The notes under the pieces: generated by a model | The model's database searches: none | Told to the model about the DNA's origin: nothing | What the model saw: only the letters and a program-made list of their open reading frames with translations | Shown: positions 18,848-49,648 of the stretch, in pieces | Layout of the letters: every line of letters begins with the position of its first letter | Numbering within the stretch: position 1 is the first letter of the stretch | Source of the DNA: an archaeon | GTDB taxonomy: Archaea; Nanobdellota; Nanobdellia; Pacearchaeales; GW2011-AR1 | Direction: 5' to 3' | Assembly: GCA_043810775.1 (NCBI GenBank) | Contig: JBDRNU010000002.1 | Span: 1-52,545, forward strand | Length of the DNA: 52,545 nucleotides | Program-made: the position numbers and the translations under genes

Positions 18848-19011
18848 GCTCAATCCCATTTACGCCCACCCCCACTCGCTTCCTCACTCGCTATCAAATT
18901 GGGAAAAATGTCTCGTGAGAAAGCTCGGGATTCACCCCATTCACTTTCAAAGTACTCTCTCCAAACTCCTGAGAGATGGGATTTCGTAAGCTCAATCCCA
19001 TTTACGCCCAC
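18848..19011. repeat. 22-bp exact direct repeat of tRNA-Ser 3' end and trailer flanking a 120-bp insert
   Basis: GCTCAATCCCATTTACGCCCAC at 18848-18869 and 18990-19011. Confidence 0.85.
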
Positions 19012-19086: not shown

Positions 19087-19142
19087 TATAAAATTAGTAA
19101 GATTATAAGGTATTTTAAGCTTTTCTAAAGCCAAGATTTATA

Positions 19143-19237
19143 GTCAAGCTTTAGAAAAGCTTGGCAAAAGGCGAGACTAAAATCTCTGATGAGATTATTA
19201 CCTCACCACATTAACTTCCTGCATAGAGTTAGTTAAT
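19143..19237 (-). repeat. Three-hairpin element family 1, copy A
   Basis: Shares GCGAGACTAA...ATTACCTCACCACATTAACTTCCT..ATAGAGTTAGTTAAT with copy D and related sequence with copy C. Confidence 0.85.
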
Positions 19238-19283
19238 AGTTCATAATAGCTAAATTTATAAATAACTTTTCATATTTTCATTT

Positions 19284-22724: not shown

Positions 22725-22916
22725 ACCGAAAGCTTTAAATGATAAACCTTTAGGAGGTTTCCAACTGTCGTGCTTATCAGCACAACTTATTAACTTCCTG
22801 CATTGAGTTAGTTAATGGTTAAGCTTTCTACCGAAAGCTTTAAAATTCAAGCTTGTAAGCTTGGCAACAGCGAGCTTAACAGCTCACTAAAAAAGCTTTC
22901 TACCGAAAGCTTTAAA
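22725..22916. repeat. Three ACCGAAAGCTTTAAA repeats interleaved with family-1 copies B1 (22741-22816) and B2 (22847-22888)
   Basis: Repeats at 22725, 22830, 22902; B1 has ATTAACTTCCTGCATTGAGTTAGTTAAT; B2 has two of the three hairpins. Confidence 0.8.
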
Positions 22917-37977: not shown

Positions 37978-38664
37978 ATGAAAAAAGAAGTGATTTTAAT
38001 TTTAGGAATTTTGCTAATAAGCTTAGCAGTGACTTCTGTATATGCTCAGGGACAGGGCAATGATGACAGTAATGCCAATGACGGGCAAGGCAATCAGACT
38101 CAACAGCAAGACCAGAACCAGACTATGGCTCAAAATAAGACACAGGAAGGAAAAACTTCAAGTTTTTCACCTTGGCAGAAAAGAAGCGAGGATGAATGTC
38201 CTGAAGGATGCTCATGCCATGGAGCAGTTGTTTCTTGCAAAACTGAAAGTGGAAAGACAATGAGTATTGAAGCAGGAAGAAGTGGAAATTTGATTACTAT
38301 AACTATTGACAAAACTGAAGTAGATACTGAACTTGAGATTGAGACAGAATTGGGAGAAGGCAATCAAACAAAGCTAAAAGCCAAGATGAAGAACGGTGAG
38401 ACTAAAGAAGTTAAAGTGATGGGTGATGAAGCTCAAGTAAGGGTAAGAGAAAGAGCAAGAATTTGCGAAGGTGAAGGAAACTGCACAGTGAAGCTTCAGG
38501 AAATTAATGGCGAATTAATGTATGAGTTTGAAGGAAACAAAGAAGGCAGATTATTTGCTTTATTTAAGAAGCAGATGAAAATACAAGCCAGAATTGATGC
38601 AGAAACCGGAGAAGTCAGCAAGATTAAGAAGCCATGGTGGGCTTTATTAGCTAGTGAGTTGTAA
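37978..38664 (+). CDS. Secreted protein with Cys module and PepSY-like KKPWW C-terminus (paralog of 51559)
   Basis: Signal peptide, CPEGCSCHG, IDAETGEV..KKPWW. Confidence 0.7.
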   Translation: MKKEVILILGILLISLAVTSVYAQGQGNDDSNANDGQGNQTQQQDQNQTMAQNKTQEGKTSSFSPWQKRSEDECPEGCSCHGAVVSCKTESGKTMSIEAGRSGNLITITIDKTEVDTELEIETELGEGNQTKLKAKMKNGETKEVKVMGDEAQVRVRERARICEGEGNCTVKLQEINGELMYEFEGNKEGRLFALFKKQMKIQARIDAETGEVSKIKKPWWALLASEL

Positions 38665-38757
38665 ACCTTTTCCAAAGGTTTCCAAAGAGCAAGACTAAAT
38701 CTTACTAGTGTAAGATATTAGCTTACTGCATTAACTTCCTACCTAGAGTTAGTTAAT
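38661..38757 (-). repeat. Three-hairpin element family 1, copy C
   Basis: Aligns with copies A and D with compensatory changes. Confidence 0.85.
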
Positions 38758-38833
38758 AAGAAGTAGGTTTTTTATTTTTCTTTTTTTATTATTTTTTGAT
38801 AATATTTATAAACTTGGTAAACTTACTAATAAT

Positions 38834-48856: not shown

Positions 48857-48929
48857 GCCTCAATAGCTCAGCTGGTAGAGCAACGCTCCCGTAAAGCGTG
48901 GGTCGCAGGTTCAAATCCTGCTTGAGGCT
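48857..48929 (+). tRNA. tRNA-Thr(CGT)
   Basis: GCCTCAA/TTGAGGC acceptor, ACGCT-CCCGTAA-AGCGT, GGTTCAAATCC. Confidence 0.9.
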
Positions 48930-48930
48930 T

Positions 48931-49027
48931 GCTAACCTTTAAAAAAGGTTACCAAACAGCGAGACTAAATCTTACTGATGTAAGATATTACCTCACCACA
49001 TTAACTTCCTTCATAGAGTTAGTTAAT
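48931..49027 (-). repeat. Three-hairpin element family 1, copy D, within a 15-bp duplication of the tRNA-Thr 3' end
   Basis: TTGAGGCTTGCTAAC at 48922-48936 and 49045-49059. Confidence 0.85.
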
Positions 49028-49061
49028 GATCAGTCAAGTAGGATTTGAGGCTTGCTAACTC

Positions 49062-49412
49062 TTATTCTGAATCATAATTAAAAGGAGTTTGAAAGTGCTG
49101 GGGCAAGACATCTTGGTATTTTTTCTGGATTCTTTCAAAAATTTCACCATACTTTGCTAAGTCTTCTTCATTGAAAAAAGAGGCAGTTCCAATTCTAAAT
49201 AAGAATATTGCAAGAGCATGATGTGAAGGCCGAAACTCTTTTTTCTCAAGCTTAAATAGATAATCACTTAGCTGCCTCCTCAATAGCTCGTGATATCTTT
49301 CAGGAATAGGGATATCAAGCTGTTTAAGGAGAAGAATCTGGTGAGCTATGCTTGGATTGCTACCATCATTACAAATCTGGTCGTATAAATCACAAGCTTC
49401 TTCTAAATCCAT
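49062..49412 (-). CDS. Hypothetical protein
   Basis: 116-aa ORF with TATA. Confidence 0.5.
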   Translation of the reverse strand: MDLEEACDLYDQICNDGSNPSIAHQILLLKQLDIPIPERYHELLRRQLSDYLFKLEKKEFRPSHHALAIFLFRIGTASFFNEEDLAKYGEIFERIQKKYQDVLPQHFQTPFNYDSE

Positions 49413-49491
49413 TAGATAATCTTTATAATTAGTATTTATAAATTTAGCGCATTGATAAGCTTTATAAATAATTACTTCTTGCTAAATTCAT

Positions 49492-49641
49492 GCGGGGGTG
49501 CCGGAGTGGCCAAACGGGCAGGACTCAGATAAACTAAATATTTAGGAAATCTGAATGCCAAACTTAAGGTCCTCCGAAAACATGGAGGAGGAGAAATCCT
49601 GTGGGTTAGTCCCTACGAAGGTTCGAATCCTTCCTCCCGCA
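49492..49641 (+). tRNA. tRNA-Leu(TAA) with two introns (49523-49561 at 30/31; 49569-49595 at 37/38)
   Basis: BHB-like motifs (GGCA/TGCC helix; TCCTCC/GGAGGA helix); spliced arm CAGGA-CTTAAGA-TCCTG; long variable arm, A73. Confidence 0.8.
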
Positions 49642-49648
49642 TTTTCTG

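Follow-up and report, generated by a model that had tools for sequence, protein, structure and literature searches.

Why should the DNA immediately downstream of a tRNA gene carry an antisense copy of that gene's own T-arm? The question arises at the tRNA-Thr(CGT) locus of the window—the whole stretch of 52,545 nucleotides analysed here, which is contig C2 of a 995-kb assembly (33% G+C; completeness estimate 80%) from a genome with DPANN-type traits, including tRNAs with introns and pilin genes with a class-III signal. The original prediction had singled out this locus as the clearest case of a scaffold joined to a target-complementary tail, which might be either a guide-like segment or a template-switch scar. 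Our best reading is that the striking RNA-guided interpretation should be dropped, and that the antisense stretch is a one-off scar.

The tRNA-Thr(CGT) gene itself is intact (48857-48929, plus strand; ARAGORN; Rfam RF00005, 67 bits; cloverleaf fold of -28.2 kcal/mol), with a T-arm of the sequence GCAGG TTCAAAT CCTGC and an acceptor 3' strand of TTGAGGC followed by the discriminator base T. A repeat search recovered the inverted pair: arm 1, TCAAATCCTGCTTGA (48911-48925, plus strand), spans the T-loop and the 3' strand of the T-stem and extends 4 nt into the acceptor 3' strand, and arm 2, TCAAGTAGGATTTGA (49034-49048, plus strand; also found in the RNA fold), is the antisense copy. Across a spacer of 108 nt, the two 15-nt arms are complementary at 14/15 positions (93%), exactly the relationship first reported for them. 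As RNA, the sole mismatch becomes a G48920.U49039 pair, so that all 15 positions are pairable, with a duplex energy of -21.1 kcal/mol. The element is moreover bracketed by a direct repeat whose first 15 nt, TTGAGGCTTGCTAAC, are identical in copy 1 (48922-48936, plus strand; repeat search and left-end comparison) and copy 2 (49045-49059, plus strand; repeat search). Copy 1 consists of the last 8 nt of tRNA-Thr and 7 further nt (TGCTAAC), which also resemble the left-end motif of the element family and form the 5' half of its hairpin 1. This 15-nt duplication keeps tRNA-Thr whole. The predicted overlap between arm 2 and the second direct repeat was likewise borne out—the two share 4 nt (TTGA)—with the earlier repeat coordinates being off by at most 1 base. 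An archaeal tRNA intron of the bulge-helix-bulge type, in which a 4-bp helix between 3-nt bulges marks each boundary, was considered and rejected, as the arm helix is continuous over 15 bp with 1- and 2-nt bulges lying only outside it, and as tRNA-Thr is complete without splicing.

The comparison with relatives indicates that the element-bearing tRNA-Thr locus is the derived state. In a sister genome of the same genus (G001), a tRNA-Thr with 93% identity is followed after ~48 nt by an intron-containing tRNA-Leu, and the element is absent; in the window, tRNA-Leu lies 553 nt further on, the extra DNA being the element together with a 116-aa ORF on the minus strand (49062-49412; without a Pfam family). 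A metagenome contig from a G001-like relative joins position 48930 to 49457 with 12 other letters in between. Homologues of the ORF (115-119 aa) occur in 3 of 100 other genomes of the family, representing three other genera, and none of them adjoins a tRNA gene; the ORF can thus be regarded as independent of the element, and its homologues were discarded as a source of empty sites. The tRNA-Leu(CAA) gene beyond it (49491-49642, plus strand) contains a 66-nt intron and was found by ARAGORN with the intron option. The default tRNA scan misses it, and many tRNAs of this genome have introns of 12-68 nt. Before insertion, the tRNA-Thr allele would be expected to have carried ...TTGAGGCTTGCTAACTCTTATT... 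once; a same-strain empty allele was not found in two groundwater DNA runs, in which only the G001-like relative was seen. The same two runs gave zero read cover over 49035-49279, so the tail junction is known from the assembly alone, and the 15-nt repeat together with the conserved tRNA-Thr/tRNA-Leu synteny argues against a chimeric assembly. Finally, the tail plus the second repeat bears a weak likeness to TTGGAGATTTAAG of G001 and was considered as a native tRNA-Thr trailer, a possibility that we rejected since it leaves the perfect 15-nt repeat unexplained.

The focal insert is a copy of a non-coding element of ~100 nt that forms three hairpins. Hairpin 1, TAACCTTT..AAAGGTTA (48933-48951, plus strand; 11-copy alignment), keeps its stem and varies in sequence among copies. 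The middle stem, GCGAG/CTCAC, encloses an inner hairpin, ATCTTAC-TGAT-GTAAGAT (48959-48996, plus strand), and RNAalifold identified compensatory changes in 4 of its 5 pairs. The conserved 3' hairpin, ATTAACT..AGTTAAT (49000-49027, plus strand; alignment and covariance model), is invariant within the genome, its stem covarying in relatives as ATCAAC/GTTGAT. Overall, the consensus of the 11-copy alignment comprises 14 pairs, 4 of them with compensatory changes. A search with nhmmer returned 15 copies in the genome at E <= 0.0035, and BLAST against the genome returned 8 long copies and further partial ones. The covariance model, to which the focal copy scores 93.3 bits, gave 14 matches in this genome, 7 in G001 and one in each of 3 of the 149 other family genomes searched. 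No Rfam family matched the element, tRNAs being the only matches at the focal locus and at the locus of a second element type (family B, below). The pattern of the conserved 3' hairpin had 0 matches in public genome contigs, and its 3 matches in public metagenome contigs were dismissed as unrelated coding or AT-rich sequence. The literature searched contained nothing on the family and nothing on long-duplication hairpin elements of DPANN archaea. The three-hairpin element family is real and unusual.

T(A/G)GTCAAS at the left end and GAGTTAGTTAAT at the right end do not form an inverted repeat, and the sole inverted repeat flanking the element is half tRNA. Of 14 copies, 5 carry the canonical left end, the heptamer AGTCAAG. 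tRNA genes adjoin 5 of the 15 copies, and all three copies located downstream of tRNAs (Thr, Ile and Lys) begin directly after the discriminator base. Three more family copies lie within the window, at 19141-19244, 22744-22822 (with a mini-copy just downstream) and 38661-38765; the copy at 22744 belongs to a tandem array with ACCGAAAGCTTTAAA(T) repeats in between, an orthologous array being present on contig C6 of G001.

Target duplication turned out to be a recurrent property of the family. In a comparison covering 14 copies in this genome and 10 in relatives, the 40-nt stretch that follows the conserved 3' end was aligned with the 40 nt preceding the element, in both reverse-complement and direct orientation, and scored against 2000 shuffles. 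Direct repeats of 13-30 nt were detected at p <= 0.0005 in 11 of the 24 copies (8/14 in this genome and 3/10 in relatives), and the repeat sequence differs at every copy. The duplicated segment is single-copy at the other species' empty site in the case of C26_9961, C26_7142 and C3_25638 and, reciprocally, of G001_C19b. Empty sites after tRNA-Lys and tRNA-Ile also delimit the inserted DNA, and the duplication is absent at both; no G001 counterpart exists for the C16 copy, and that of the tRNA-Ser region of the window is rearranged. At the junctions, the three non-tandem cases free of filler all displayed identity—of 3, 5 and 7 nt—between the element end (...AGTTAAT) and the native DNA that precedes the duplicated segment; by chance, such lengths would be expected with P(>=3) = 0.023, P(>=5) = 0.0019 and P(>=7) = 0.00015. 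For C26_7142, the empty site of G001 has AATTAATG at the microhomology position. Such microhomology supports a copy-choice process, because it is where the returning nascent 3' end would anneal, and a staggered-cut transposase would not predict it.

The inserted DNA reaches to different points at its 3' end, extending to varying degrees into GAT followed by YAGTYAAG: GATTAAA at C3_25638, GATCAGTCAAG (11 nt) at the focal locus and more than 40 nt at tRNA-Lys. Tails of C7_7046, C2_22744 and the tRNA-Lys copy on C9 likewise start with a module resembling the left end or hairpin 1. As judged from these sequences, the inserted DNA often continues into the next head-to-tail copy. We also observed that duplicated segments often end in TATA-box-like strings (..GCTTTATA, ..GGTTTAAA, ..ATATTTATA) or include the start codon of the next gene, which suggests that promoter or gene-start DNA may be preferred as a target.

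Against this background, the reverse-complement arm of the same comparison speaks directly to the idea of a target-complementary tail. Matches at p < 0.001 were confined to 2 of the 24 copies, namely the focal one and the copy after tRNA-Ile on C26 (GGATTTGAAC vs GTTCAAATCC). In G001, tRNA-Ile lacks the element and is followed by CTCATGCTCGCCTTTTCGGATTTG, the same trailer that stands after the element in this genome. Because this trailer is present without the element, the tail of the tRNA-Ile copy is native flank, and the copy was rejected as a second antisense tail. One further signal, at C4_12703 (p = 0.003), comes from a hairpin that this copy forms locally with its own direct repeat, and the tRNA-Lys copy gave a tail score of 4 (p = 0.93). 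Seen from the side of the targets, only Thr and Ile among 30 tRNAs show a downstream match of this kind within 250 nt at p <= 0.003. The original prediction had described the locus as the clearest case of scaffold plus complementary tail, and had named tails of other copies devoid of target complementarity as the finding that would speak against it; this is essentially what emerged, in 22 of the 24 copies. The notion of a guide-like segment fared no better, with complementarity in 1 of 24 element-borne tails. As a separate observation, the native 3' trailer of tRNA-Ile complements its own T-loop over 8-10 nt in both species (C26:46373-46382 in this genome; also at ~1603-1612 of the corresponding G001 locus). 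At the 5' end of the same tRNA-Ile gene, a 14-nt direct repeat, TTATGAGCCTGTAG, flanks a 29-nt hairpin-forming insertion (C26:46633-46690, minus strand), and G001 has a larger insertion at the same position.

What, then, is the focal tail made of? Positions 49028-49044 read GATCAGTCAAGTAGGAT. The first part, GATCAGTCAAG (49028-49038, plus strand), is where the insert continues into the left-end motif (AGTCAAG) with which a next tandem copy starts: the sequence is found again in other copies, and at 9/11 positions it agrees with GATTAGTTAAG, which follows TTAAT in the tRNA-Lys copy on C9 and which the G001 empty site places within the inserted DNA. The second part, TAGGAT (49039-49044, plus strand), comprises the only 6 nt left unaccounted for by the element and the duplication; these are complementary to ATCCTG (48915-48920) at 5 of 6 positions, or at all 6 with G.U pairing. 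Half of arm 2 is therefore pre-explained, as ATCAGTCAAG is element-borne (AGTCAAG) and TTGA comes from the duplication. Part of the match is also built into the target, because the T-loop of tRNA-Thr contains TCAA, complementary to the TTGA of its acceptor 3' strand, and any copy of TTGA pairs with TCAA.

The complementarity is genuine and more than chance would readily supply, by a margin that depends on how much of the arrangement is taken as given. Inverted repeats of at least 14/15 with a spacer of 60-150 nt number only 13 in the 995-kb assembly. When the whole 16-nt tail was shuffled or swapped for random genomic 16-mers with the second repeat held fixed, an equal score was reached at p = 0.00015; with ATCAGTCAAG also fixed and only the last 6 nt randomized, the value rose to p = 0.0054, which corresponds to a family-wise p of ~0.02-0.13 (counting ~4 filler junctions, or 24 copies). 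A BLAST search additionally found that the focal tail and repeat together share 15 identical nt (TAGGATTTGAGGCTT) with a coding region for a P-type ATPase (C15:153056-153076; E = 0.019). This match is due to chance, and it calls for caution with similar ones.

We favour reading the antisense T-arm stretch as the scar of a junction formed when the element inserted at the 3' end of tRNA-Thr, with a probability of roughly 0.45. On this account, the element would have been inserted by copy-choice, i.e., template switching during DNA synthesis. A nascent 3' end terminating in ...TCAAG would have paired with the wrong strand of the quasi-palindromic T-arm/acceptor region, at CTTGA (48921-48925); copying of that strand would have yielded CAGGATTTGA, followed by re-annealing through TTGA to the correct strand, along which synthesis would have gone on as GGCTTGCTAAC.... 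An inverted 15-mer and a direct duplication starting from TTGA would have resulted, and one later C-to-T change would give the observed sequence. The model covers all 15 bases—one of them with the later change—and re-annealing at TTGA would explain the termination of the inverted repeat precisely 4 nt inside the duplication. Template switching at quasi-palindromes is an established mutational route (PMC7202029, PMC7954356). Of the two possibilities originally offered for the tail, the template-switch scar is hence the one that we retain; it is seen at one junction only, however, and chance is a live rival. Several features sit less comfortably with the scar: inverted templated filler occurs in no other copy among the 24 tested, the single mismatch must be explained by an extra event, and TGCTAAC may be the left end of the element, in which case the direct repeat would straddle the boundary between tRNA and element. 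Such a junction-spanning repeat is not expected from a simple one-step model, and family B at tRNA-Ser offers a further example.

The chief competitor, which we consider unlikely while taking it seriously, is that the 15-mer is a coincidence—a mosaic of the element's TCAAG, the duplicated TTGA and 6 junction bases of no particular origin, whose antisense appearance would arise from the self-complementarity of TCAA and TTGA within the tRNA. That AGTCAAG is a canonical left end, and that GATYAGTYAAG follows TTAAT in the tRNA-Lys copy, both favour it, since only 5 of 6 more matches would then be needed (p = 0.0054 per copy, or ~0.1 over 24 copies); the unrelated identity on C15 shows, besides, that matches at the 2% level do occur. 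The coincidence has to contend, however, with the p of 0.00015 for the match as a whole and with the scarcity of comparable inverted repeats in the assembly. Moreover, the TCAAG of the donor had no reason to complement tRNA-Thr unless annealing chose the site, and the repeat ends exactly at the switch point expected from a template-switch model. A different origin, which we judge improbable, is a decayed direct duplication that once comprised at least 27 nt and included the T-arm, and in which a loop flip, or the loss of 10-11 nt between TTGA repeats, left GTAGGATTTGA. Duplications of the family do reach 27-30 nt, family B carries direct copies of the T-loop and of the tRNA 3' end, and the palindromic nature of the T-stem makes the direct and inverted readings differ at few bases. 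Yet at least 3 events (inversion or indels, plus a substitution) would be required where the inverted reading is ungapped at 14/15, and the upstream TCAA would be left unaccounted for.

A functional role for the tail appears just as improbable. It would take the form of a guide or antisense segment that targets the T-arm of tRNA genes, or that sequesters the T-arm in a read-through RNA and so modulates the maturation of tRNA-Thr. Folding of the read-through RNA (48857-49075) with ViennaRNA does predict a preference for the long-range helix, with a joint minimum free energy of -70.1 vs -63.8 kcal/mol for tRNA and trailer apart and arm pair probabilities of 0.84-0.999. Such a transcript is conceivable, as no run of at least 5 T follows tRNA-Thr before ~49117. 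The earlier suggestion that the tail could pair with the tRNA in a read-through transcript is thus upheld as a predicted, energetically favourable structure, and misfolding of the pre-tRNA by the tail is physically possible according to these models. The association of copies with tRNA genes and the T-loop complement kept in the tRNA-Ile trailer of two species would also fit a guide. On the other hand, 22 of 24 copies lack tail complementarity, the one other strong case is native flank, the tRNA-Lys copy shows none, and the arm consists in part of the duplication and in part of a generic element end. During transcription, in addition, the tRNA would already fold ~100 nt ahead of the synthesis of the tail. 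We would regard any influence on pre-tRNA folding as incidental. A more specific variant of the guide idea seems scarcely credible to us, namely that a C/D-box-like RNA directs 2'-O-methylation of the T-stem through a 12-nt antisense segment between C-like and D'-like boxes. Archaeal C/D sRNAs can target tRNAs, and their consensus comprises box C (RUGAUGA) and box D (CUGA), plus C'/D' boxes, flanking guides of 10-12 nt. The focal tail offers AUGAUCA (49026-49032) and UUGA (49045-49048) at a spacing of 12 nt, with CUGA at 49066-49069. The essential GA is nevertheless missing from box C (UGAUCA rather than UGAUGA), the D' box reads UUGA, and there is no C' box; no Rfam C/D family matches the element or the tail at E <= 10, and GATYAG after TTAAT is a generic element feature.

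If the favoured reading of the antisense stretch as a junction scar is correct, the scar would be a clue to the movement of an apparently enzyme-less hairpin family in very small archaeal genomes. Two features bearing on copy-choice were observed across the junctions: microhomology of 3-7 nt at all three filler-free, non-tandem ones, and a single inverted filler, at the focal locus only. Taken together, the inverted filler, the microhomology, the variable 3' extent and the long, variable duplications point to replication-based template switching. We tentatively propose, as a possibility rather than an expectation, that the elements spread without a transposase, by a nascent strand that departs from the chromosome in the course of replication or repair, copies the hairpin element (often continuing into the next tandem copy) and returns wherever a few bases anneal. 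On this proposal, the focal 15-mer would be the fossil of such a strand's search, preserved at the T-arm hairpin, and its complementarity would reflect how the strand found its site. DPANN archaea would then harbour a class of mobile DNA that moves by copy-choice. The duplications rebuild tRNA ends and start codons, which would explain why insertions are tolerated at essential genes. Searches of the assembly at E <= 0.001 revealed no Cas1 (PF01867), RVT_1, TnpB zinc-ribbon (PF07282), Y1_Tnp, IS110 DEDD or DDE_Tnp_1 domain in the 80% of the genome that it is estimated to represent, and control genomes did give PF01867 matches. Two tyrosine recombinases are encoded in the assembly, both on other contigs, and no integrase adjoins the element. 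Given an assembly that is 80% complete, an unseen transposase is possible.

Several known systems resemble the family in part. Like MITEs, the elements are small (~70-150 nt), non-coding and rich in hairpins, occur in multiple intergenic copies and have target duplications at their flanks; unlike MITEs, they have no terminal inverted repeats (TIRs), their duplications are long and variable (13-30 nt, as opposed to a fixed 2-10 nt), and no matching transposase was found among the six families searched in the 80%-complete assembly. A prokaryote-wide MITE census relied on a TIR-based finder and gives the usual duplication as 2-10 nt (PMC11602168), and a census built in this way would probably miss the family. 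The inverted copy at the focal junction, the microhomologies of 4-5 nt and the hairpin-forming T-arm are reminiscent of quasi-palindrome mutagenesis and FoSTeS/MMBIR. FoSTeS/MMBIR and templated insertions are forms of replication-based template switching, and work on polymerase theta belongs to the same background. Known template-switch cases consist of point-like mutations or large rearrangements, whereas the case presented here would be—on sequence grounds—the spread of a defined element family.

Casposons generate duplications of ~14-15 bp and insert at tRNA gene 3' ends. The element shares with them the ~15-nt duplication and the tRNA 3'-end site, but it is ~100 nt rather than several kb in length, its duplications span 13-30 nt, it lacks terminal inverted repeats, and no Cas1 was found in the assembly. 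In tRNA-targeting integrative elements, a direct repeat of the tRNA 3' end similarly keeps the gene intact; in contrast to these, the family has no common att core and no adjacent integrase, and most of its copies lie off tRNAs. Finally, the notion of a scaffold with a short target-complementary segment is shared with the omega RNA of TnpB/IscB, the bridge RNA of IS110, the EBS-IBS pairing of group II introns and C/D guides. Unlike these guide-RNA systems, the family comes with no TnpB, IS110 or reverse transcriptase gene in the assembly, complementarity is limited to a single element-borne tail, and the box motifs do not fit.

Two further observations concern insertions at other tRNA genes. 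A second element type, family B, is unrelated to the three-hairpin family, measures ~130-150 nt and begins right after five tRNA genes (Ser, Arg, Gly, Glu and Ser), its copies being located at 18859-19004 of the window (minus strand), C5:1151-1296, C7:54397-54544, C25:79501-79651 and C8:4732-4938. It has no Rfam match, and a BLAST search of 100 other genomes of the family detected it in only 2. Every copy includes a hairpin and a long helix showing compensatory changes, along with a T-loop-like direct motif whose sequence tends to agree with that of the local tRNA. Each copy ends in a direct copy of 7-15 nt of the 3' end of its tRNA, and at tRNA-Ser the repeat extends from the tRNA end through the initial 15 nt of the element. 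In another relative (G093), two tandem copies resembling the three-hairpin family precede tRNA-Leu(TAA) (C5:16437-16620), and upstream of them stands a copy of the first ~12 nt of that tRNA (GCGGGGTGCCG), an arrangement that looks like an insertion into the tRNA 5' end, with the end rebuilt by duplication.
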